Virus record (IMG/VR): IMGVR_UViG_3300027861_000022
Coordinates: 1,581-65,580 of that record
Strand: one strand, 5' to 3'
DNA from: a virus
Length of the DNA stretch: 64,000 nucleotides
Every line of letters starts with the position of its first letter. Positions within the stretch are counted from its first letter, which is position 1. The notes beneath the pieces are model-generated. The model ran no database searches, was not told the DNA's origin, and was given only the letters and a program-made list of their open reading frames with translations. Position numbers and translations under genes: made by a program. Below, piece by piece: positions 1,040 through 24,189 of the stretch.

Positions 1040-1095
1040 ATTATACCAGATTTTAGAGGGAAAGTAAAGAAAAAGTTTGTCAAGAGAATGTCAAG
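1040..1095 (-). promoter_or_regulatory. Early promoter cassette 1
   Basis: TATAAT 1040-1045, TTTACT 1063-1068 (17-bp spacer), CTTGACATTCTCTTGACAA 1077-1095. Confidence 0.85.
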
Positions 1096-1333
1096 CAACC
1101 AACCTCCATTTCGTAGGGTCCAGGTCGATTATCTGAAAACTATATAAATCTCCTGGGTTCCACGCATGAGTTTCATCAAGTAATACATAAGTTTTAAACA
1201 GTCTTTTCGTGACCTCGTATATGACAAGTCTCGACCACTCGCCACGATGAATGCTGGGGATACAAATTATATCCCCAGCCTTTAAGGTTTCGACATCATC
1301 GATCTTGAGGTGACCTTCAGTCATTGATTGCAA
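1091..1333 (-). CDS. Small hypothetical protein (LKAGD motif)
   Basis: ORF coupled to the upstream vWA gene; LKAGDII resembles the FKxGD family. Confidence 0.6.
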   Translation of the reverse strand: MQSMTEGHLKIDDVETLKAGDIICIPSIHRGEWSRLVIYEVTKRLFKTYVLLDETHAWNPGDLYSFQIIDLDPTKWRLVA

Positions 1334-2726
1334 TCACTCGCTCATTGGTCTGGAAGTAAGGGCGTTCTGCGTGAGCCTTGGTTGTCATCCACATACGCTG
1401 ACACTTGCTAGGAACAGGCTTAGGAGCCTCCATATCGGTCAAGACAATGTGACCATCAAATTTATTCGCGTTTACCCACTTGGTTGGAGCATCAAAGCAG
1501 GTTCCACCATGCTTATAGCGAGTCTTCTCGTGGCGCTCGCCCTTCTTCCAGACATGAATATGCTCCTCTGCAACCTCGGTATCAAAAGGAACAATCGTAA
1601 AGTCGGCGATGGTTGCCAGCTTTTCAAGCTCGGAATAAAAAGCTGTAAGCATCTCATCGGAGACGCTGCCCGATTGGTCAATTGAAACCGCTATTTTCGC
1701 TTGACGCTTTGCCTTGCGACCAGGATGAATATAAGCATACCGGCGATTTAATCTCTTGATTGTTGAGGTTCTATCTGCTCTCTGGCTTGCCTTGACGAAC
1801 GAGCGCAGGATTGAACGCCAGTTGACTTTAGGAGTTATAACCTCCTTAATCGTGCGCTTCATGTTAGAGGACACCGAACCGAAGCCGCGAGACATTGCCT
1901 CGACATAAGCCTCTTTAATAGCTTCTTTTAAGCGCTCTTCTGCAATCTTCCTTTTCTCGTCGGTTCCATCGGAAGAACCCCAGTCAGAATGGTCATCAAA
2001 GCCATTTCCAGAGCCAGAGCCGGGCTTGCTGGTCGGCCCTTGCCCGCCCTTGCTCTCGTTATCGTCTTGCTCGCCCTCGGAACTATCATCGGGCGGTCCG
2101 TCTCCGTCGCCGTCTCCGTCCTCGCCATCGTTGTTATCGTCGCTCTCGGAGTCACCCTGGTCCGGTTCATCCTGGTCCTCATTCTCGGGTAACAAAGTCA
2201 TATATTCCTCGGCGGAAAGATGAGGAAGAAGGTCAACAAACGGGCCAACGGTTGGGATACAGGCCATATCCACCGGCAAAAGGGAACTTTCGACGGCGCA
2301 GCCGGTTGAAGTATCGGCATCGCGTGTAAACACAGTTAACTCGCTGTTAATCGCGAGGTCTGTGGCAATATTCCATTTCTTCGTCATCTTTCCAGATGGA
2401 AGGCGAGAAGTAACGTGCAAAAGCATGATATGATAGAATTCATGCAATAGTACGCCTTTAACGTACTTAATATCCTGATCAAGCATCTTTGCCATGAAGT
2501 CCGGGTTATAAAACAGTTCAAACCTGCATTTATCCTCATTAAAGCGGACGCCGGCGGTTGGAACCGACTTAGAAGCCACCTTTTCCATCCGTCGCGATAA
2601 AGCGGCGAAGAAAGGCTCATCTCGGAGGAGTCCGACGATGTGAGTGTTAAGGTCGAAAGGCGGCAATTGCTTTTCGCCGTCTTTTGTGAAGGAATTAGCT
2701 AAAGTAGTCATAGGGTAGTGCTCCAT
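1317..2726 (-). CDS. Metallopeptidase-like + vWA domain protein (DUF2201-type), partner of MoxR ATPase
   Basis: HEFYH (HExxH), WNIATDLAIN, acidic linker, vWA MIDAS DQSGS, GGT and LTD motifs. Confidence 0.85.
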   Translation of the reverse strand: MEHYPMTTLANSFTKDGEKQLPPFDLNTHIVGLLRDEPFFAALSRRMEKVASKSVPTAGVRFNEDKCRFELFYNPDFMAKMLDQDIKYVKGVLLHEFYHIMLLHVTSRLPSGKMTKKWNIATDLAINSELTVFTRDADTSTGCAVESSLLPVDMACIPTVGPFVDLLPHLSAEEYMTLLPENEDQDEPDQGDSESDDNNDGEDGDGDGDGPPDDSSEGEQDDNESKGGQGPTSKPGSGSGNGFDDHSDWGSSDGTDEKRKIAEERLKEAIKEAYVEAMSRGFGSVSSNMKRTIKEVITPKVNWRSILRSFVKASQRADRTSTIKRLNRRYAYIHPGRKAKRQAKIAVSIDQSGSVSDEMLTAFYSELEKLATIADFTIVPFDTEVAEEHIHVWKKGERHEKTRYKHGGTCFDAPTKWVNANKFDGHIVLTDMEAPKPVPSKCQRMWMTTKAHAERPYFQTNERVIAIND

Positions 2727-2737
2727 TCTATATACAT

Positions 2738-2793
2738 ATTATACCAGATTTTTCGGCATAAGTAAAGAGAAAGATTGTAAAGAAAATGTCAAG
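2738..2793 (-). promoter_or_regulatory. Early promoter cassette 2
   Basis: TATAAT 2738-2743, TTTACT 2761-2766, variant upstream motif 2775-2793. Confidence 0.8.
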
Positions 2794-2795
2794 AG

Positions 2796-2840
2796 AAAAA
2801 AGGGTGGTCGGAGGGAGGCTAACCAAAACCCCCCTCCAAC
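2796..2840 (-). terminator. Intrinsic terminator after the AAA ATPase gene
   Basis: GGTTGGAGGG...CCCTCCGACC hairpin followed by a T run on the minus strand. Confidence 0.65.
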
Positions 2841-2861
2841 CGGAGCTATCACACTCGCAAA

Positions 2862-4016
2862 TCACTTGCCTCCAAGCAACTTAATGAACTCCTCAACTTT
2901 TCCCTGGCGAGTCAACTCGCGGTGAAAGTTGGAGCCATTATCGGCAGATATTTGGTTGTTCGCCTTGGTCAAGGTTGTGAACAGTTTCATCCTCGCTTCG
3001 GCTGGAAGCGCGTCAAAGTACAGGACCAAATTGGACATTTTGGACTCTTCCATTTTGGAGTTGAAAACTTCACTTGCGTCCATCTTCTCGATGAGTGCAA
3101 CGTGGTCAACCAGGCCGAAATCCTTGGTTTTATCTATCTTTCCGTGAACCAGAATATCGTCGACGGTTACCTGACGTTCGTAATTCTCAACGAAGTCGCG
3201 AAGAGCAACAGCGGCTTCAAAGCCGACAAATCCGTGGGATAGGTTGAAAAGCAGCCCCAAATCTGGGCTTTCGTCGTCAAGCAGGTTAACCTTTCCGAGC
3301 GTATTGCTCAAACGGTGCCATGAACGGCGAGACGGATAAACAGTGCCAGGCTCAAATTCGCCCTTGTGCTCCAAGTGGTCATGATTTTGATTGATGAAGT
3401 CCCAAACAAGGCTATGAATCTCGCTTTTGCCCCAGTTGAGCCAATCTTCGATGGAAGGCTCAACGTCAAAGCAGACCCAGCGGTCAAGCTCGGCAGGGTC
3501 CATGTCCGCGACTTGGTATTGTGCAGCATGAACGCCGCCATTTACCGCGCCGAAAATGATGGTACCAGGATGGAGTTTCCAGCCGTTGATTTGGCGCGAG
3601 TCGCCAAGTTGGAAGAACCCCTGTCGAACCTCGGTTGTCGCTCGGTCAATTTCATCGAGGAAGAGGACAACGGGCTCGGTACAGGCCCGTACAAGCCAAG
3701 AGAAGGGCCGTAGAGACGCCGCATCTTGACCGTTGACCTTTACCATGGCGGGCGATGGAAGCCCCAGAAGGTCGCCTTCTGTCATCTGTGAGGCACGTTG
3801 TTCAACGACCGGTAGAGGAGTCTCACCCTGCTTAATCGGGCGAGTGGTTTTGGTCTTCGCATCCCAGGTTAAGCCGTTGGCGGTCTGGTAAGCAATCCAA
3901 GATTTGCCGATACCGTGACGGCCACGGATAAGGACGGAATAAAGGTTAGACTCATCACCCGATAGAAGGGTAGGAATCATGGAAAAAAGGTTAGAGAATG
4001 TGATAGCGATGGACAT
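2862..4016 (-). CDS. MoxR-like AAA+ ATPase
   Basis: Walker A GRHGIGKS, Walker B LFLDE, DPAELDR and PSRRSW motifs; adjacent to vWA gene. Confidence 0.88.
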   Translation of the reverse strand: MSIAITFSNLFSMIPTLLSGDESNLYSVLIRGRHGIGKSWIAYQTANGLTWDAKTKTTRPIKQGETPLPVVEQRASQMTEGDLLGLPSPAMVKVNGQDAASLRPFSWLVRACTEPVVLFLDEIDRATTEVRQGFFQLGDSRQINGWKLHPGTIIFGAVNGGVHAAQYQVADMDPAELDRWVCFDVEPSIEDWLNWGKSEIHSLVWDFINQNHDHLEHKGEFEPGTVYPSRRSWHRLSNTLGKVNLLDDESPDLGLLFNLSHGFVGFEAAVALRDFVENYERQVTVDDILVHGKIDKTKDFGLVDHVALIEKMDASEVFNSKMEESKMSNLVLYFDALPAEARMKLFTTLTKANNQISADNGSNFHRELTRQGKVEEFIKLLGGK

Positions 4017-4063
4017 ATTATGTCTCCTGGTTTAAGTAGGTAAGTTGTTTAGGTTATGTATAC

Positions 4064-4119
4064 ATTATACAGTGTTTTTGGGGTTTAGTCAATGGTTATA
4101 TTGTCAAGAGAATGTCAAG
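4064..4119 (-). promoter_or_regulatory. Early promoter cassette 3
   Basis: TATAAT 4064-4069, TTGACT 4087-4092, motif 4101-4119. Confidence 0.85.
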
Positions 4120-4132
4120 GGCGATAAAGGGC

Positions 4133-4930
4133 TTATATAGCCCCTTGCCAGTGCTTTCGTCGTTTATAAATCTCTTTAATTTTCTTGTCCTTGGAGCTAA
4201 ACCAACCTGCAGGCGGCGCAGATGGCGGAACTGGGGACTCAACAGTTAGAAAATGGTGTCCAATATGCTGGGCGCGCCAGTGCGAGCCATCTATTAGCTC
4301 TCCCAAAATGCGCTCGCTCAAAAACAGCTTCAAAAGCTCTTCATCGAATGGTAGCCCTAATGCATTCTTCCACCCGCGAGCACCCAGTAGGCCCATAGGA
4401 ACGGTGAAAAAAGGAGCGGGCTGGGCGCCGGTGTGTCCTTCGGTGGCGCTGTTAAAATACCAAACTTCTCGGTTCCATACATTGATTCCAAGCCAGTTTA
4501 CATCTGTTACAATCTGCGGAATTCGGTATGTGCCAGCCTGCTGATTATTCGCATCAATGTATTTTCTATTAGCATCACTCGAAACTATGGCGCCGATGCC
4601 GACTCCCAGGCGAATTAAGTGCCGATAAACACTTTTCCTGAATTCAGAGTTTTTACCTCTGGTTTCTTCCATGTTTTCTTTCAGGGTTGTGCAAGTTGCG
4701 CGGTTGTGTCCGCCTTCGTCGCAGTATGAACACTTGCGATTCTTGCCGCTAGCCTTCCGTCTTGCTTTCTTGAGGTCATGGGCGCGCACAGTGTAAAAAT
4801 CATCTCCATGTACGGCGCGTAGTTCCTCAATTCTTTCTCTCTTACTAGGACAAGAGGATTTATTGTGTCCTTTATCGTGACAGTATGAACAGTGAACGGT
4901 TCTTTTATGGGAGGGGTGCGAGTATGACAT
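4133..4930 (-). CDS. Protein with two CCHC zinc knuckles
   Basis: CSYCHDKGHNKSSC and CSYCDEGGHNRATC. Confidence 0.75.
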   Translation of the reverse strand: MSYSHPSHKRTVHCSYCHDKGHNKSSCPSKRERIEELRAVHGDDFYTVRAHDLKKARRKASGKNRKCSYCDEGGHNRATCTTLKENMEETRGKNSEFRKSVYRHLIRLGVGIGAIVSSDANRKYIDANNQQAGTYRIPQIVTDVNWLGINVWNREVWYFNSATEGHTGAQPAPFFTVPMGLLGARGWKNALGLPFDEELLKLFLSERILGELIDGSHWRAQHIGHHFLTVESPVPPSAPPAGWFSSKDKKIKEIYKRRKHWQGAI

Positions 4931-4977
4931 TGTGATAGCCTCAAAAGTTTGTGGGTGAATCTCTAACTTGTATATGT

Positions 4978-5033
4978 ATTATACCAAATTTTAGAGAGAA
5001 AGTAAAGGATTAAATTGTAAAGAGAATGTCAAG
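4978..5033 (-). promoter_or_regulatory. Early promoter cassette 4
   Basis: TATAAT 4978-4983, TTTACT 5001-5006, variant motif 5015-5033. Confidence 0.8.
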
Positions 5034-5049
5034 AGATTTATAAATAAGA

Positions 5050-5264
5050 TGACCGAGGAGGTCGCTGCCGTTTTGCTCGGATGTCCGGCGTCCTATCTAC
5101 ATAAATTGTTTGTTGGCACTACTTCGCGTGCCCCCCTGGTAATGGAGATAGAAAGCCCATAATGCATCGCGCTAAAGCGATGAGCAGCCTTCAACCCTTA
5201 GAATCAAGAGGCAGCCCTATATAGCAACGGGCTACGTTTAAAGATTATGTGACCTCCTCGGTCA
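5050..5264. ncRNA. Candidate structured ncRNA of unknown class
   Basis: Perfect 14-bp inverted repeat TGACCGAGGAGGTC (5050-5063 / 5251-5264) enclosing several hairpins; intergenic. Confidence 0.45.
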
Positions 5265-5287
5265 AATTCAAGTTTAAATCAAGGCTT

Positions 5288-5893
5288 TCATTTGACTTTC
5301 GGAGCTTTCTTGAGCCAGCGCTCTTGAATTTCAATTGTTCGAGATTCTCCAAATGGCAAAATTGTGTAGCCCTTGGCGCCTTTGGCAGCGGAGCGAATAG
5401 GTCCATCGGTTGAAACCACCATAGCAATTCGGTCGCGAAACGCATAAGCGTGTGACCGAGCGGTCTTGCGCACTTTTACCAGAGAGCCAGCGGGATAAAG
5501 CGCGTCCGCAGCCATGATTGTAAGCACCTTTTGGACGTACTTATTTTCAACCATCTTGCGATAAAGCTTTTCGCTTGGAATATAAGTTTCTTCCTCCATA
5601 ATTGTCTTGGCGGCATCGCCAAAATAGGGAGGATTCAAAAGATAATATTCTGCGGCGACTTTTAGCTTGCGCGCCTTTTCCTCGTTCCAGTCGTCCTTCC
5701 AGGCTTTTTGTGAAGCGATGACCGCCGGACTAAAACGAGCCTCCATCCTCTCAAACGCCGACCACTGTTTGTCGCTAAGGCGTCCCCATTTCTTGCAGCT
5801 TCCCTGCAAGCTTTCGGCGAACGAGCGAGAAGAGCCGTTCAAATCTTTGTTTTCAAGTAGTTTTTCAATTCGGGCGGTTTGTTGAGCAGACAT
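5288..5893 (-). CDS. Hypothetical phage protein with C-terminal KOW/SH3-like region
   Basis: 201-aa ORF with own promoter and GGAG RBS; F..SL.....G.LS.KQ motif and YPAGSLVKV. Confidence 0.75.
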   Translation of the reverse strand: MSAQQTARIEKLLENKDLNGSSRSFAESLQGSCKKWGRLSDKQWSAFERMEARFSPAVIASQKAWKDDWNEEKARKLKVAAEYYLLNPPYFGDAAKTIMEEETYIPSEKLYRKMVENKYVQKVLTIMAADALYPAGSLVKVRKTARSHAYAFRDRIAMVVSTDGPIRSAAKGAKGYTILPFGESRTIEIQERWLKKAPKVK

Positions 5894-5918
5894 GCTAACT
5901 CCATTAGGTTATGTATAC

Positions 5919-5974
5919 ATTATACAGGGTTTTTAGGCTTAAGTCAATGGTTATATTGTCAAGAGAATGTCAAG
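5919..5974 (-). promoter_or_regulatory. Early promoter cassette 5
   Basis: TATAAT 5919-5924, TTGACT 5942-5947, motif 5956-5974. Confidence 0.85.
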
Positions 5975-6212
5975 TCATCAAAAACACGGTGGCTCCTAGC
6001 ATATGGACACTTTTATCAAGATATAAAGTACACATCTCGCCTGCCTTTACATGGAGGGTTCGGGGCCAAGAGAGCAAAGTGAAACATTTATAAGACGCCT
6101 CGCCATCTGAATTTTTCCTCTTGCTAACTAAAATATGCCTTTGATTACTCCGGTCGCTAACTACGGCGAATTCATCACCGATTTTTAATTCTTTTGGCCT
6201 TATAACTTTCAT
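5970..6212 (-). CDS. Small hypothetical protein (LKIGD motif)
   Basis: MKVIRPKELKIGDEF; fits the operon. Confidence 0.65.
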   Translation of the reverse strand: MKVIRPKELKIGDEFAVVSDRSNQRHILVSKRKNSDGEASYKCFTLLSWPRTLHVKAGEMCTLYLDKSVHMLGATVFLMT

Positions 6213-6213
6213 T

Positions 6214-6579
6214 TTAGCGAAACCATCCCAGTGTTTTGTCGAAAGACGGGTTTAAAATTACTTTTTCGGGGCCTGGGTGTGGATTCCAGACCCAAAAGCG
6301 TTTTTTCTGCGTGCCAATCTGGTGAAGACCGTGCGGTGCTGGGCCTTCTAAGCCGCTTTTCCTCGCTTGTCCCTTTGACGGGAAAACACCGGCTTCAACG
6401 GCCATAAAAGCTAAATCGTCAGTTTCAACCCGGACAATCGCTTCACCGGTTGCGACTGGACCAAACACAAGTTCAATATCTCGGTCTGAAACCACATTTT
6501 CTTCTCTTTCAACTACAAAATGAAACAAGCAACCCCCAAACTGTATACACATTATACCAGATAATCGCGATATTGTCAA
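6214..6579 (-). CDS. Stand-alone S4-like RNA-binding domain protein (start likely downstream of the ORF-track start)
   Basis: LAFMAVEAGVFPSKGQARKSG resembles the TyrRS C-terminal S4 motif; the ORF-track start lies inside promoter cassette 6. Confidence 0.5.
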   Translation of the reverse strand: MTISRLSGIMCIQFGGCLFHFVVEREENVVSDRDIELVFGPVATGEAIVRVETDDLAFMAVEAGVFPSKGQARKSGLEGPAPHGLHQIGTQKKRFWVWNPHPGPEKVILNPSFDKTLGWFR

Positions 6580-6606
6580 CGATTATATTGTCAAGAGAAT
6601 GTCAAG
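6551..6606 (-). promoter_or_regulatory. Early promoter cassette 6
   Basis: Perfect TTGACA 6574-6579, N17, TATAAT 6551-6556; motif 6588-6606. Confidence 0.88.
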
Positions 6607-6627
6607 ACAAGTTAAATAGTCGCAGGT

Positions 6628-6870
6628 TTACTTTTCCCTCGGATGGACCTGATACCAGCCTGGTCCACACGATTGCGTGCGAACAAGCAGGATAGTTTCC
6701 TTTCCATACGATTTTAGAGTTTTTCGATGGAATTCATCGTATCCGTCGCGACTTCGCAAAAGGTCAGCGGCGCAAACCGAAAACCAAGTTCCGACCGGAC
6801 CAAAATACAGGTCTTGGCCATTGTGGAATTCAAAAGCCTGATTTTCGTTAATGTGAATCGCCTCATTCAT
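6628..6870 (-). CDS. Hypothetical protein
   Basis: 80-aa ORF coupled in the operon. Confidence 0.6.
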   Translation of the reverse strand: MNEAIHINENQAFEFHNGQDLYFGPVGTWFSVCAADLLRSRDGYDEFHRKTLKSYGKETILLVRTQSCGPGWYQVHPREK

Positions 6871-7081
6871 TTTCTTTTCCTCTGTTGACGATTTTCCACT
6901 CGTCTCCGTGGTTGTTTACCCATAGAGTTGTTCCGTTTAAACGCCGGTTAACCGGCGCATAAGTACAATGAATGACCACTTTATGATAAAATTTGTTGAA
7001 TTCGCTAGTTTTAAAGCCGACAACTATTCCCTCCAATTTGTTTGATTTGTGACGGATGAAATCGCCCTTTTTAAGTTCCAT
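6863..7081 (-). CDS. Small KOW-like protein (LKKGD)
   Basis: MELKKGDFIRHK..EGIVVG. Confidence 0.7.
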   Translation of the reverse strand: MELKKGDFIRHKSNKLEGIVVGFKTSEFNKFYHKVVIHCTYAPVNRRLNGTTLWVNNHGDEWKIVNRGKENE

Positions 7082-7307
7082 ATTGGCCGCCTTTAAACAA
7101 TTTGCAAGCCTTGTGCATGAGCACAGTGGGCCTGTAAAATTTTCTATGAAGTGACCAGGTGGACGCTTCAGAGTAAAACAGATAGTAAGTATAACCGGCG
7201 CCGTGTTTCTCGATAATTATGCTCCTGCTTCCATAGCTGTCGACGACAATTTGTCCTATCTCAAACAACAGTTTCAACGCGCCAAATCTTGTCAAGAGGG
7301 TCGACAT
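7071..7307 (-). CDS. Small KOW-like protein
   Basis: FEIGQIVVD motif; true start probably near 7268. Confidence 0.55.
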   Translation of the reverse strand: MSTLLTRFGALKLLFEIGQIVVDSYGSRSIIIEKHGAGYTYYLFYSEASTWSLHRKFYRPTVLMHKACKLFKGGQYGT

Positions 7308-7521
7308 CCTCCTTGGTTAATAGCCAAGTATCCACAAGTCCCGGTTCCCAATAACTATTACCGCGCCCCTTATCGTCACCGGCATATACACAAAATGCTT
7401 CTACCTCGCTCGACCAGCGATATGACCCCTTGTGGACGGGTTTGTGAGGAGTCGCCTCAACAATTATCCAAACGGAGTTTGTTGGTACGTGAGTTACTAA
7501 ATTTCCAGGCTTAAACTTCAT
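7261..7521 (-). CDS. Small early protein, MKFKPGN family
   Basis: Paralog of 765..1028. Confidence 0.75.
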   Translation of the reverse strand: MKFKPGNLVTHVPTNSVWIIVEATPHKPVHKGSYRWSSEVEAFCVYAGDDKGRGNSYWEPGLVDTWLLTKEDVDPLDKIWRVETVV

Positions 7522-7690
7522 GATTTAAAATATCTTCGTCAAGCTGTTCCTGTATCCATTCTGGACATTCTTCGTCAGCATCCATCGGCATCGGGTCATA
7601 AGAACCGCCGAAATCATACGATTCTTCATAGAATTCCTCTGAAGATATGGTCATAAGGTCGTTTATCGCGGGGTCGTTTGAGTATGGCAT
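7511..7690 (-). CDS. Small acidic protein (59 aa, below ORF-track cutoff)
   Basis: Manual translation MPYSNDPAINDLMTISSEEF...; GGAG RBS; overlaps the next start. Confidence 0.6.
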   Translation of the reverse strand: MPYSNDPAINDLMTISSEEFYEESYDFGGSYDPMPMDADEECPEWIQEQLDEDILNHEV

Positions 7691-7727
7691 TTCTGCTCCT
7701 GTTTGGTTTGGTTTGATTGGTAAGATA

Positions 7728-7816
7728 AAATAGGGCGAGCGTGCTACCTAGCAACACTTCACAACTGGTCCCTTGGTCGTGACAGGATTTGAACCCGCGC
7801 CCCTCGCCCTATTTGT
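7728..7816 (-). ncRNA. Circularly permuted tRNA-like RNA (YrlA-like topology)
   Basis: 12-bp terminal stem, T arm GCGGG-TTCAAAT-CCTGT, loop-closed acceptor-like stem, D arm GTGT-TGCTAGGTA-GCAC; promoter directly upstream. Confidence 0.75.
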
Positions 7817-7822
7817 ATATAC

Positions 7823-7878
7823 ATTATACCAGAATTTTCCGGTTAGGTCAAGGATTAAATTGTCAAGAGAGTGTCAAC
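7823..7878 (-). promoter_or_regulatory. Early promoter cassette 7, driving the tRNA-like RNA
   Basis: TATAAT 7823-7828, TTGACC 7846-7851, variant motif 7860-7878. Confidence 0.82.
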
Positions 7879-7883
7879 AACTT

Positions 7884-8138
7884 TTAAAAGTAATCTTTCA
7901 GAGTTTTAATCTCGCCGTACTCTTTCTGAAAGTTAGCTCGGTCTTCTTCATCCTCGAATCGGATGACTGAAACGTCTTCGCCGAGTGAGCCGGTTACGCC
8001 AAAGTGCTTGGGTGGGGAGTTATCCCCGCCCCGATCTTCTACGCAGTCTGGACACTCATTGATATATCCTCCGACGAGGCGCTTTTGGCGCGAGTTAACA
8101 TTGAATTCTATTTCACAGTGTTTACAAGTTTTAATCAT
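7884..8138 (-). CDS. Small zinc-ribbon protein
   Basis: CKHC...ECPDC. Confidence 0.7.
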   Translation of the reverse strand: MIKTCKHCEIEFNVNSRQKRLVGGYINECPDCVEDRGGDNSPPKHFGVTGSLGEDVSVIRFEDEEDRANFQKEYGEIKTLKDYF

Positions 8139-8165
8139 GATTTACCTTTATGGTTCTGGGTTAAA

Positions 8166-8241
8166 TGGTACGCTAGGGTGGATTTGAACCACCGACCAAT
8201 CGCATATAAGACGACTGCTCTCACCCCTGAGCTACTAGCGT
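8166..8241 (-). tRNA. tRNA-Ile(UAU)
   Basis: Full cloverleaf ACGCTAG/CTAGCGT, anticodon loop CT-TAT-AT, T loop TTCAAAT, encoded CCA. Confidence 0.9.
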
Positions 8242-8244
8242 GTA

Positions 8245-8296
8245 TGGTACTCGGAGAGGGATTTGAACCCTCAATCCCATCGGGCGACAGATTTTA
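8245..8296 (-). pseudogene. 3' half of tRNA-Leu(UAA); 5' half absent
   Basis: TAAAA-TCTGT, long variable arm, GAGGG-TTCAAAT-CCCTC, TCCGAGT-A-CCA; no matching 5' strand or D arm upstream. Confidence 0.7.
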
Positions 8297-8371
8297 CTTT
8301 GTAACAAACTATCCTCACTTGGTTCTTTCTGGATGGTTACCTTTTGTATCTTTATTCATTCTTCGCTCTCC

Positions 8372-8743
8372 TTAAATCGCCTTCATTTCTGAAAGAAGGT
8401 CTTCATAGTTCTCAATGTATCCTCCATTGGTTCTGCCATCCAGTCGGTTTAGTAGATTGATCGAGGATTCACCCGCCCACAAATCATCATCTTTCCATCC
8501 GAGAAACTCTTTCACTCCTGGGAATTCCTTGGTGATTTTGATAATGGTATCATCCAGATCACGGATCTCTTCTGCACTTCGCCTACACAGAGATTTCAGT
8601 CTGATTACCTCTTTTTGCAGATCTCGCTTTTGTTTTCGGAGTTTATCGATTTGAATGAATACGGTTTCGTCACTCATTTTCTTCTCCTTTCCCCCAACTT
8701 CCAAACTCTTCAATATATTCTCTTTGAAGTTCAGAGGGGTCAA
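8372..8743 (-). CDS. Hypothetical coiled-coil protein (true start likely 8677, MSDETV)
   Basis: GGAG RBS before the internal ATG; heptad-rich. Confidence 0.65.
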   Translation of the reverse strand: MTPLNFKENILKSLEVGGKEKKMSDETVFIQIDKLRKQKRDLQKEVIRLKSLCRRSAEEIRDLDDTIIKITKEFPGVKEFLGWKDDDLWAGESSINLLNRLDGRTNGGYIENYEDLLSEMKAI

Positions 8744-8900
8744 AATATGAAAGTTGGTCCTTGAACCACCGATATCGTTTATAAACCTCTTTCATCTTGT
8801 CAAAAGCAGGATAAGCAACATTTTCGTCCAAGCAACCTTCGTTAAAGGCAGCCCGCAACCCTTGTCTAATAGCATCAAATTCTTGTTCAGTGATTTTCAT
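8670..8900 (-). CDS. Hypothetical protein
   Basis: 76-aa ORF coupled to the next gene. Confidence 0.65.
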   Translation of the reverse strand: MKITEQEFDAIRQGLRAAFNEGCLDENVAYPAFDKMKEVYKRYRWFKDQLSYFDPSELQREYIEEFGSWGKGEENE

Positions 8901-8974
8901 TTTCTTCTACCTGCAACACAATAAACGTGGCGCGCTTCAGTTTATAGCAACCGCCTGTCTTTAGGTCTTCAAGT

Positions 8975-9193
8975 TCAAGCTTCATGTTTCACCAAATCGC
9001 AGGTGCGTAATCCAGTCCTATCGCCAGCGGTCCATGATTCATGAGAGGAGAAGACGATATACGAATTCCAGATTCGATGCTTGACAACGAGATAGTCAGT
9101 GTCCAGTCCAACCCCAAGGAGGATGACCGTACTTCCCTCAAGTCCGCCACGAAGAACGGTTCTTAATTGTCCTGCTTTAAGCTCGTCTTTCAT
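8975..9193 (-). CDS. Small KOW-like protein
   Basis: LKAGQLRTVLRGGLEG. Confidence 0.6.
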   Translation of the reverse strand: MKDELKAGQLRTVLRGGLEGSTVILLGVGLDTDYLVVKHRIWNSYIVFSSHESWTAGDRTGLRTCDLVKHEA

Positions 9194-9462
9194 ACCACCT
9201 CCAATGCGAAATCCTGAATGCTCTTTAAATTAAAAACGAATTCGACCGGTCGGTTTTGTCCAAAGCGCTGCAGTGCATTGTGGCTATCATATATTTGATA
9301 CATCTTAAACGCTCGGGCGCCCTGCCATCTTGCCGAGCACGATTCGGCGCCGGGCATTTCCTCCAACAATATCCACAAAGATTCAACGCGCTCCTGCGTT
9401 GAATACAATTTTACGGAATATCTTAACATTTGCCCTGGCTTTAAGCTATTGATATCTAGCAT
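9190..9462 (-). CDS. Hypothetical protein, paralog of 9552..9830
   Basis: MLDINSLKPGQMLRY...ESLWILLEE. Confidence 0.75.
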   Translation of the reverse strand: MLDINSLKPGQMLRYSVKLYSTQERVESLWILLEEMPGAESCSARWQGARAFKMYQIYDSHNALQRFGQNRPVEFVFNLKSIQDFALEVV

Positions 9463-9488
9463 GGCACAACTCTCTTTTGTATACCTAC

Positions 9489-9544
9489 ATTATACACGCT
9501 TTTAGAGAGAAAGTAAAGAACTAAATTGTCAAGAGAATGTCAAG
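9489..9544 (-). promoter_or_regulatory. Early promoter cassette 8
   Basis: TATAAT 9489-9494, TTTACT 9512-9517, motif 9526-9544. Confidence 0.85.
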
Positions 9545-9551
9545 TCGTCTT

Positions 9552-9830
9552 TCATTTGACCTCCAGCGTGAAGCTGCTGGAATTATGCGGACCAAAACAA
9601 TAACTGACATTACAGTTGGTGTCGATGGAGTTTCTGCTATCGTATAGATGATATAGTTTAAACGTTCGGCGTTCGCCAGATTCGATTTGCTGCTGATGGA
9701 GCAGAACATCGCCGGCTGGGTGTTCCTCTTCCTCCAGCAATATCCATAAAGATTCTATCTTAGGTTCATTGTTGAATCCGGCAGAATATTTAATTATCTG
9801 TCCGGGTTTGAGATTTTTAACGTCTAGCAT
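9552..9830 (-). CDS. Hypothetical protein, paralog of 9190..9462
   Basis: MLDVKNLKPGQIIKY...ESLWILLEE. Confidence 0.75.
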   Translation of the reverse strand: MLDVKNLKPGQIIKYSAGFNNEPKIESLWILLEEEEHPAGDVLLHQQQIESGERRTFKLYHLYDSRNSIDTNCNVSYCFGPHNSSSFTLEVK

Positions 9831-9856
9831 GATACAGTCCTCTTTTCTATACCTAT

Positions 9857-9912
9857 ATTATACAGTATTTTCAGGTCTGTGTCAATGATTAAATTGTCAA
9901 GAGAATGTCAAG
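9857..9912 (-). promoter_or_regulatory. Early promoter cassette 9
   Basis: TATAAT 9857-9862, TTGACA 9880-9885, motif 9894-9912. Confidence 0.88.
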
Positions 9913-10457: not shown

Positions 10458-10533
10458 TGTACAAACTCCTTGAACAAATTTATTATATTATACTATATAA
10501 TATCACTTTTTTACCCATTTGTCAAGTAATTTC

Positions 10534-13438: not shown

Positions 13439-13498
13439 AGTTAATCCTGTTTATAATAAATAGTTCTTATATTATTATAACTCATGATTATTACTTTG

Positions 13499-14518
13499 TC
13501 AAGGGCTTGCTGAAGAATTATTTACGCCTAGTTCAACTGTGTGATTTTTTATATAAGAATACTCTTTTACCTCGTAGCCAATCTCAACGTGGACTCCCTC
13601 ATCTGGGAGAATATCAAAGTATACTTTATTGCTTGCTTCATCAAAATGCCAATCGCTGTATATGCTTCCATCAGCGAAGACAACTACAGTATCCGTATAA
13701 GGAATATGTGTGAGTCTGTAATCTTCATATGGTTCAATTTCGTTGGTTGCTTCCTCAACTGCGGTTGCCCAATCGTCCTCGCAGATGTCGATGACGTTTC
13801 CAGAGAAATAATCTGTCGCCTCCATGTACCTTACGCCGATGTTGCTCACATATGGTGGCGATGCACAAACTGAATCAGCCGCGTTTACGTTGACAATCGA
13901 TGCCACGTAAACACTTTGTCTGCGGTTCTCATACCAAGTCGTAAATTCGCTTACTGTCATCGTCGACTGTTCCTCTTCGTCGGAGACGAATACTATCAGC
14001 ATTGAGGCATCTGGTCGCATCCAAGTTTGCGCGTATGCGTCGGTTGAAACGTAGTTCTTGGCCGCATCAAATCCCTTTTCGTAACCATCAGCAGGGAGCG
14101 CGTTTAACATATCAAGTGCGTCGGTGGCGGTGTCGCCTCTGGTCAGAGGAAACGTGGTGGGTTGAACTATATAAGAACTGCCGCCGGCTGTGATCATCTT
14201 CAAGCGCCAATTGACATCCGTTGGAAGAACGCTCATCATGGCCTGAACGCCGTCAATCAAGCTATCATTGTGAACGCTCATTGAACAAGACTTGTCAATG
14301 ACCCACAGAATGTCTATTTCATCGAAGGCACCCACTTGATCAAAAGAGTCAATCCAAATCTCGGCGTCGGGTTCAACTTCAACTTCAATATATTCTATGA
14401 TCGTTTCTTTCTCTCCTTCTCCTCCGCCGTGTATAACATAATCAATGTTCGTCGTGCAGGAAGACATCATCAGCGCGCCGCAAACGGCGATAATGGATTT
14501 AAATTTAAAAGCCCACAT
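13499..14518 (-). CDS. vWA-domain lipoprotein
   Basis: Lipobox-like ALMMSSC; DILWVIDKSCSM MIDAS, IVFVSDEEEQS. Confidence 0.78.
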   Translation of the reverse strand: MWAFKFKSIIAVCGALMMSSCTTNIDYVIHGGGEGEKETIIEYIEVEVEPDAEIWIDSFDQVGAFDEIDILWVIDKSCSMSVHNDSLIDGVQAMMSVLPTDVNWRLKMITAGGSSYIVQPTTFPLTRGDTATDALDMLNALPADGYEKGFDAAKNYVSTDAYAQTWMRPDASMLIVFVSDEEEQSTMTVSEFTTWYENRRQSVYVASIVNVNAADSVCASPPYVSNIGVRYMEATDYFSGNVIDICEDDWATAVEEATNEIEPYEDYRLTHIPYTDTVVVFADGSIYSDWHFDEASNKVYFDILPDEGVHVEIGYEVKEYSYIKNHTVELGVNNSSASP

Positions 14519-23859: not shown

Positions 23860-24189
23860 TTATAAATCAGGAAGCTCTTTTTCTAATATATCAAAAATGT
23901 TTTCTATTTCCTTGTCATCTAGGCCAAATTTTCTTTTATTTTCCTGTCCTTTTTCTTCCGCATCTTTAACAATCTTTGATTGCTTCTTGCTTTGAAGACC
24001 CGAGGACTCTTTCACCCTCTCAACGAAATCAACAATTGTATGATCTCTCTCTAAATATCCGGTGAGCAACTCCCTAAAGAACTTTGTCTTAGTTAGTCCG
24101 TCGTGTTTTAAACGGATCATCAAATCTGCACTTCTCTTATCTGTATCCATAAAAGATATTCGCTTGTCTCTCTTTCCGTAGTCCTTCAT
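23860..24189 (-). CDS. Hypothetical, possible ribbon-helix-helix DNA-binding protein
   Basis: RISF.DT......L...L..DGLTKT.FFR pattern. Confidence 0.55.
   Translation of the reverse strand: MKDYGKRDKRISFMDTDKRSADLMIRLKHDGLTKTKFFRELLTGYLERDHTIVDFVERVKESSGLQSKKQSKIVKDAEEKGQENKRKFGLDDKEIENIFDILEKELPDL

Follow-up and report, generated by a model that had tools for sequence, protein, structure and literature searches.

Introduction

The Pho box of Escherichia coli is made up of two CTGTCAT repeats separated by an A/T-rich spacer of 4 bp, with an 18-bp consensus CTGTCATAWAWCTGTCAY, and it replaces the -35 element, lying about 10 bp upstream of the -10 element in the orientation of transcription. The middle promoters of phage T4 similarly have a Mot box at -30 in place of the -35 element, and the phage encodes both MotA and AsiA. 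Here we describe nine phage promoters in which a doublet of -35-like boxes lies upstream of a separate -35 element. They occur in a 64,000-nucleotide stretch of DNA (hereafter the window) covering positions 1,581 to 65,580 of the IMG/VR virus record IMGVR_UViG_3300027861_000022. These promoters were originally predicted, from the letters of the window, to be an early regulon read either by a host OmpR/PhoB-type regulator, with its site in reversed orientation, or by a phage factor.

Several described systems invite comparison. Regulators of the OmpR/PhoB family bind head to tail on tandem direct repeats and make contacts with sigma region 4, with the beta flap and with the RNA polymerase alpha subunit's C-terminal domain (alpha-CTD) (PMC11825685). 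The cyanobacterial Pho box has the consensus PyTTAAPyPy(T/A) (PMC10976474). The HLR1 site of the regulator RpaB consists of two (G/T)TTACA(T/A)(T/A) octamers positioned 2 nt apart (PMC6525291), and RpaB sites centred near -51 activate (PMC6525291). Finally, T4-type phages contain promoter-early stem-loop (PeSL) cassettes, in which a stem-loop is found just upstream of the promoter (PMC2839356, PMC4122927).

Results

A double box upstream of nine early promoters

The window contains nine minus-strand modules of the form CTTGACATTCTCTTGACAA-N8-(-35)-N17-TATAAT, in which the -35 element is TTGACA, TTGACT, TTGACC or TTTACT. Their -10 elements start at positions 1040, 2738, 4064, 4978, 5919, 6551, 7823, 9489 and 9857, precisely as originally predicted. 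The claims of fixed spacing and of few substitutions were also borne out: N8 and N17 are the same in all nine promoters, and the upstream box is identical in six, the other three having one or two base changes. On the plus strand this box is a direct repeat, TGTCA-N6-TGTCA, with an 11-bp period, and it amounts to two extra TTGACA hexamers. No tenth module is present in the 66,152-bp record, where the sole other site within four mismatches is an intragenic chance match. The core TGTCA-N6-TGTCA, allowing up to one mismatch, has 13 matches in the record compared to 3.96 +/- 2.29 in 100 shuffles, not one of which reached 13. The nine elements are host sigma-70-type promoters of an early, ORFan-rich block, every gene in the first 10 kb of the window being on the minus strand. 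Their other features are an extended -10 (TGnTATAAT), a 17-bp spacer and a frequently sub-optimal -35.

Conservation of the double box in related phages

The exact 18-mer is present in 66 IMG/VR stretches and is followed nearly always by the N8/-35/N17/-10 layout. Nearly all of the contigs concerned are genomes of 190-205 kb or pieces of such genomes. Five complete relatives (190-205 kb) each contain 13-20 doublets with at most one mismatch; most of these, 13-17 per genome, share a strand and fall in a single block of 12-20 kb. A backwards control pattern is found 0-1 times per strand. Protein identity has a median of 58% with the closest complete relative, falling to 44% among relatives further apart. 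At such distances neutral positions are saturated, yet the boxes and their offsets persist. The offsets of 11, 15 and 17 bp are retained in these phages. The whole phage clade shares the design, which is a strongly selected, clade-wide module. The earlier idea that these early promoters form a coordinated class is supported, as is selection on the direct repeat upstream of them.

In a logo built from 203 non-redundant sites, each upstream box reads C-TTGACA-W, the flanking C and W being conserved, and the 3-nt spacer between the octamers is variable and T/C-rich. Also visible are the extended -10 (TGn), a purine 7 nt past the -10 and a Shine-Dalgarno sequence. Conservation was quantified by reciprocal ascertainment, in which sites were picked by one element and the remaining elements then measured. 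Measured in this way, box 2 is TTGACA in 74% of sites and TTTACA in 21%, and box 1 is TTGACA in 78% and CTGACA in 12%. The ACA of the boxes is kept in 174 of 175 and 165 of 167 sites, and their third base is G in 83-91% of sites in the logo. The true -35 of the same promoters behaves differently, being exactly TTGACA in only 20 of 138 cases (14%), with TTG kept and the last three positions varying. Sigma-70 -35 elements in general keep TTG and vary in the last three positions. The asymmetry therefore indicates that the boxes are under a different, stronger constraint than a -35 that sigma region 4 reads in the holoenzyme.

A degenerate box scan of IMG/VR produced mainly chance matches, plus one different, promoter-like architecture in other phages. 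This takes the form CTTGACA-N4-CTTGACAA-N5/6-TAnnnT, where the first box is itself the -35 and the second lies inside the spacer. In five records checked, with estimated full lengths of about 150-225 kb, the doublet occurs one to three times per record. The stretches with this architecture are L136, L144, L149, L151, L153, L154, L157, L158, L169, L171, L175, L178, L180, L183, L186, L194 and L195.

Geometry and a second promoter class

Positions were numbered by taking as +1 the conserved purine 7 nt downstream of the -10. The two hexamers then occupy -61 to -56 and -50 to -45, the box spans -44 to -62, and the centre of the pair is at -53. Box 1 lies 26 bp from the -35 in 226 sites and 25 bp from it in 21, the latter mostly from a few related contigs. 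Where the spacer between -35 and -10 is 16 or 18, it is the 26-bp distance to the -35 that is kept and not the distance to the -10; the boxes are thus independent of the -10. Both boxes are on one helical face, with the proximal one 15 bp (about 1.4 turns) from the -35.

Outside the early block the window contains further near-perfect TTGACA-N17-TATAAT/TATATT promoters, ten of them by a stricter count, and none has the box. Among them, on the minus strand, are those with -35 elements starting at 10525, 13502, 20234, 27648, 31363, 41364, 44567, 45051, 45588 and 47041; the first two extend over 10497-10525 and 13474-13502. The first five had already been named as box-less in the original prediction, and indeed are. 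These promoters belong to the part of the genome devoted to replication and nucleotide metabolism. When pooled with their counterparts from three relatives they are A/T-rich at -44 to -40 and -55 to -49, like an UP element. There are, then, two promoter classes, with the double box of one occupying the place of the A/T-rich, UP-like stretch of the other.

Several relatives additionally contain arrays in which 4-7 hexamers form 11-bp doublets and no promoter follows at the usual distance. Such promoter-less TTGACA/TTTACA arrays are found in stretches L012 (4615-4666), L019 (4631-4734), L035 (7850-7916), L051 (8245-8299 and 8985-9029), L054 (6652-6703) and L026 (10306-10360, corresponding to 180856-180910 of the complete relative G001). 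They accord better with a unit that binds protein in its own right than with one element of the contact between polymerase and promoter. The arrays often adjoin a G/C tract and, in several contigs, a GGGG..CCCCCCTCCCCCC tract follows. The G001 array lies directly upstream of a gene that, read by eye, is gp55-like and would encode a late sigma factor. A 187-kb record of uncertain kinship to the clade has no class-A promoters, and neither has the 190-kb record of stretch L038. The former provides the one case of doublets in both orientations in the same region, a 480-bp intergenic region (L059 5415-5900, contig approximately 175.5-175.8 kb) with six TGTCAA on one strand and TTGACA doublets on the other. 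The region also contains at least five copies of AAAAACTTTACATAACT and looks like a control region or origin.

The phage and its relatives

The source record is an IMG/VR virus contig of 66,152 bp with a CheckV completeness estimate of 36%. Its genes include those for a DnaE-type polymerase, a Cpn60 chaperonin, a DnaB-like helicase, a UvsX-like recombinase and a tail sheath, while one complete relative additionally encodes gp32, a gp25-like baseplate protein and a T4-type prohead protease. The phage is an uncultured, T4-like marine myovirus from seawater with a full genome of roughly 190 kb. The sequencing runs listed as carrying its DNA are seawater metagenomes, with no RNA run among them. 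A near-identity search of GenBank phages gave no match to the record. The isolates closest by terminase and sheath, with 40-48% identity (48% for the large terminase subunit of immuto), are Flavobacterium phage immuto and Microcystis phage Mel-JY01; both lack the box. Nor was psbA found in the relatives, which are therefore not typical cyanophages.

The design is also present in the metagenome-assembled genome (MAG) CP070664.1, labelled 'candidate division WOR-3', which has at least eight complete three-box promoters at five loci. These are near 8052, 594635-594992, 1263032-1263193, 2078510-2078705 and 2143226 (stretches L084-L090, L128 and L129). The promoters precede homologues of phage early genes, mostly of 30-58% identity. 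Some of the loci are beside ordinary bacterial genes; their G+C content of 40-46% is phage-like. The architecture is present in none of 271 other genomes of the same phylum. We treat these loci as a lead only: they are either a pointer to the host or co-binned phage fragments. The MAG has no classical OmpR/PhoB regulator, only three weak matches in proteins of 663-1078 amino acids, and no 11-bp-periodic box was seen in the approximately 350 bp upstream of its pstS match.

Genes downstream of the nine promoters

Box promoter 1 (1040-1095; box 1077-1095, -35 TTTACT 1063-1068, -10 TATAAT 1040-1045), on the minus strand like the other eight, serves four small paralogous open reading frames (ORFs) at 765-1028, 539-775, 309-542 and 98-319. 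Box promoter 2 (2738-2793; box 2775-2793, -35 TTTACT 2761-2766, -10 2738-2743) precedes a DUF2201 metallopeptidase/VWA gene at 1317-2726; its box has two substitutions, with TTTACA as the proximal hexamer, and a strong terminator hairpin at 2806-2841 lies directly upstream. There is also a hairpin upstream of box promoter 3 (4064-4119; box 4101-4119, -35 TTGACT 4087-4092, -10 4064-4069), the target of which is an AAA_5 ATPase gene at 2862-4016. The proximal hexamer is again TTTACA in box promoter 4 (4978-5033; box 5015-5033, -35 TTTACT 5001-5006, -10 4978-4983). Its target, at 4133-4930, encodes a 265-residue protein in which two CCHC-type zinc-knuckle motifs can be discerned by eye and which matches zf-C2H2_10 and Zn_ribbon_6 in Pfam.

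A clade-conserved early gene at 5288-5893, for a protein of 201 amino acids, is the target of box promoter 5 (5919-5974; box 5956-5974, -35 TTGACT 5942-5947, -10 5919-5924), and ORFs 6214-6519 and 5970-6212 are those of box promoter 6 (6551-6606; box 6588-6606, -35 TTGACA 6574-6579, -10 6551-6556). The transcript from box promoter 7 (7823-7878; box 7860-7878 with two substitutions, -35 TTGACC 7846-7851, -10 7823-7828) begins with a tRNA-like structured RNA (approximately 7728-7816), followed by small ORFs from 7511-7690 to 6628-6870. This RNA (7728-7816, minus strand), which has the T-arm GGTTCAAATCC, is recognised by neither ARAGORN nor Rfam. Box promoter 8 (9489-9544; box 9526-9544, -35 TTTACT 9512-9517, -10 9489-9494) serves ORFs 9190-9462, 8975-9193, 8670-8900 and 8372-8677, a tRNA-Ile(TAT) at 8166-8241 and ORF 7884-8138; Rfam found nothing beyond the tRNA. 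Lastly, box promoter 9 (9857-9912; box 9894-9912, -35 TTGACA 9880-9885, -10 9857-9862) serves ORF 9552-9830. Many of the small early ORFs (98-1028, 6628-7521, 8975-9193 and others) are paralogues starting MKFKPGD...

Candidate readers of the box

Among the proteins considered as possible readers, ten small proteins of the window had no clear DNA-binding family in Pfam. No match to MotCF or AsiA was found above the cut-off in the phages, a weak negative since the control genomes were all cellular. The most conserved early protein, that encoded at 5288-5893, has a confidently predicted fold (predicted local distance difference test, pLDDT, of 94) with a KOW/SH3-like C-terminus resembling the KOW domain of DSIF (Z 8.9). 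Its N-terminal helices had no structural match, and no feature marks it as the reader.

A second candidate is a Cys-rich protein of 86 amino acids (L093 1833-2093, plus strand; L094 1894-2154, minus strand) that combines an N-terminal Cys cluster with a sigma-70 region 4 helix-turn-helix (Pfam E-value 1e-11). Its gene is inserted between a gp33-like gene and a gene for an acidic protein. As a universal reader it was rejected: it occurs in only two of the five complete relatives searched (G002 and G005), and is absent from the syntenic gap in this record and two other genomes (G000, G001 and G004). In the window, a clade-conserved protein of 109 amino acids (23860-24189, minus strand), ending ...IENIFDILEKELPDL and without a Pfam match, looks, from its size, position and tail, like a late co-activator of the T4 gp33 type, with a putative clamp-binding C-terminus. 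On the host side, the exact 19-mer has 8 matches in 185,579 prokaryote genomes compared to roughly 4 expected, which is a chance rate.

Discussion

A proposed tandem site for a DNA-binding protein

On balance we lean towards the view that the doublet is the tandem binding site of a sequence-specific DNA-binding protein acting at -53. Two copies of the protein would sit head to tail on the two C-TTGACA-W repeats, sharing a face of the helix, and the bound pair would act on RNA polymerase from a class-I-like (activator) position. Such a reader would set the early class apart from the UP-like sigma-70 promoters of the same phage. We infer that a separate protein, and not RNA polymerase, reads the boxes, with activation and shut-off both possible; it may be either a host regulator, given the OmpR/PhoB-like geometry, or a phage protein that is delivered or made early. 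A variant in which the doublet is the operator of a phage-delivered or first-made reader of perfect -35-like boxes, switching the early class on or off without regard to the UP-type promoters, seems to us distinctly unlikely; on it, the MAG promoters, in islands of phage genes, would be infection-sensing cassettes firing only on the arrival of that factor.

Several observations weigh against a dedicated reader. No protein was found that qualifies as one: Trans_reg_C proteins are lacking in the five phage genomes searched and, when 53 core proteins were compared with Pfam, there was no clear helix-turn-helix or winged-helix family among 25 listed of the 47 matched. The hexamers are the sigma-70 -35 consensus with its usual flanks, and RNA polymerase remains a candidate. 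All the box-bearing genomes are in one viral clade, so that there is no convergent use by unrelated phages of the kind that would point to a host factor. Furthermore, the uniformity of the boxes within a genome could be due in part to recombination between cassettes.

If RNA polymerase itself read the boxes they would be a substitute for an UP element, providing landing sites for sigma region 4 (of the same or a second holoenzyme) or for alpha-CTD, and raising polymerase capture where the true -35 is sub-optimal. This would suit their match to the -35 consensus with its flanks (cTTGACAt), their anchoring to the -35, their location at the UP-element position that is A/T-rich in other phage promoters, and the failure of the searches made to find a phage regulator. 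We consider this the main rival, though rather unlikely. The sequences vary in different ways: the boxes have an invariant ACA and vary at positions 1 and 3, whereas the -35 keeps TTG and varies in the last three positions. No -10-like sequence is present 17 bp downstream of either box, and the proximal box, about 1.4 turns from the -35, is on roughly the opposite face. The existence of box arrays without promoters also tells against the polymerase, as does the nature of alpha-CTD, which binds A/T-rich minor grooves.

The proposal that the box is a reversed host Pho box, a PhoB site tying early expression to phosphate status, we regard as very improbable, even though the plus-strand TGTCA-N6-TGTCA shares the core and period of the E. 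coli element and cyanophage genes with PhoB-bound Pho boxes exist (PMC10976474). The relatives lack psbA, prokaryote genomes contain the exact box at about the rate expected by chance, and CP070664.1 has neither a classical OmpR/PhoB regulator nor a periodic box upstream of its pstS match. Compared with the E. coli element, the reverse strand of the phage box, TTGTCAAGAGAATGTCAA, keeps the core pentamers and the period but matches only 12 of 18 Pho-box positions; the flanks differ and the spacer, AGAGA, is not A/T-rich. Moreover, the box lies at -44 to -62 beside a separate, intact -35, the element that a Pho box replaces. The suggestion that the module is mainly a recombination substrate, its cassettes kept uniform by exchange and its boxes having no reader of their own, is one to which we attach hardly any credence. 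The cassettes do alternate with ORFans in a region that is plastic, shuffling is mediated by PeSL cassettes (PMC2839356, PMC4122927), and one bacterial MAG has homologous early genes behind the same promoter at five places. Exchange, however, would homogenise whole cassettes and not single positions, whereas across genomes that share 44% protein identity the two octamers are fixed and it is the spacer and flanks that vary; and the stem-loop that defines PeSL is clear at only two or three of the nine promoters.

Early promoters govern the takeover of the host by a phage and, in this clade of abundant, uncultured marine phages, they have two additional -35-like boxes whose conservation exceeds that of the -35. 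The 19-bp doublet thus offers a short bait for finding either a new regulator or a new mode of RNA polymerase recruitment. The motif is also a very specific marker of the phage clade, of its early regions and possibly of its host.

Comparison with known systems

A full-text literature search for the box string returned no paper, and no published description of the design was found. Relative to the E. coli Pho box, the TGTCA reading of the phage box is on the strand opposite to transcription, and the box lies upstream of a separate -35. Two positions separate the phage box from the cyanobacterial Pho box, and in the phage box they are near-invariant (G, sometimes T) or invariant (A). In HLR1 the period is 10 bp and T stands where the phage box has G, while the phage octamers are 3 nt apart, so that the box failed as an HLR1 site; the activating position of HLR1, about -51, is nevertheless near the -53 centre of the phage pair. 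The tandem sites of the OmpR/PhoB family, like the phage box, are built from direct repeats of 8 bp, two or more in number, around a TGT/ACA core, and their 10-11-bp period accommodates that of the phage box (11 bp, as in Pho boxes). Actinobacterial PHO boxes (PMC11825685) are tandem direct repeats too, with a consensus that differs from the phage box.

The original idea of an OmpR/PhoB-type regulator accordingly divides in two. At the level of the family it appears reasonable on this analysis, the two 8-bp repeats, the 11-bp period, the TGT/ACA core and the centre at -53 all fitting the expected geometry. The link to the Pho box, to PhoB and to host phosphate is not supported, in view of the 12/18 consensus match, the orientation and the position.

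As for T4 middle promoters, a -35 is present here, and the boxes lie at -47 and -58. The box resembles UP elements, and the A/T-rich upstream regions found at T4 early promoters, in its position (-40 to -60) and in being an add-on to a sigma-70 core promoter; those elements are A/T-rich, whereas the phage box is a sequence-specific direct repeat with invariant G/C positions. The likeness to PeSL cassettes extends to sigma-70-type early promoters that recur, each with a Shine-Dalgarno sequence and start codon after it, to a setting between small ORFans in a plastic block of a T4-like genome, and to a uniform orientation. An upstream stem-loop is clear at 2738 (z -4.1) and 4064 (z -1.9) and possible at 4978, the other six promoters being like shuffles. 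The AT-rich stretch upstream of the -35 in PeSL cassettes (PMC4122927) is replaced by the double box in all nine phage promoters. The module is a variant on phage early promoter cassettes, and its box is not a recognisable Pho box.

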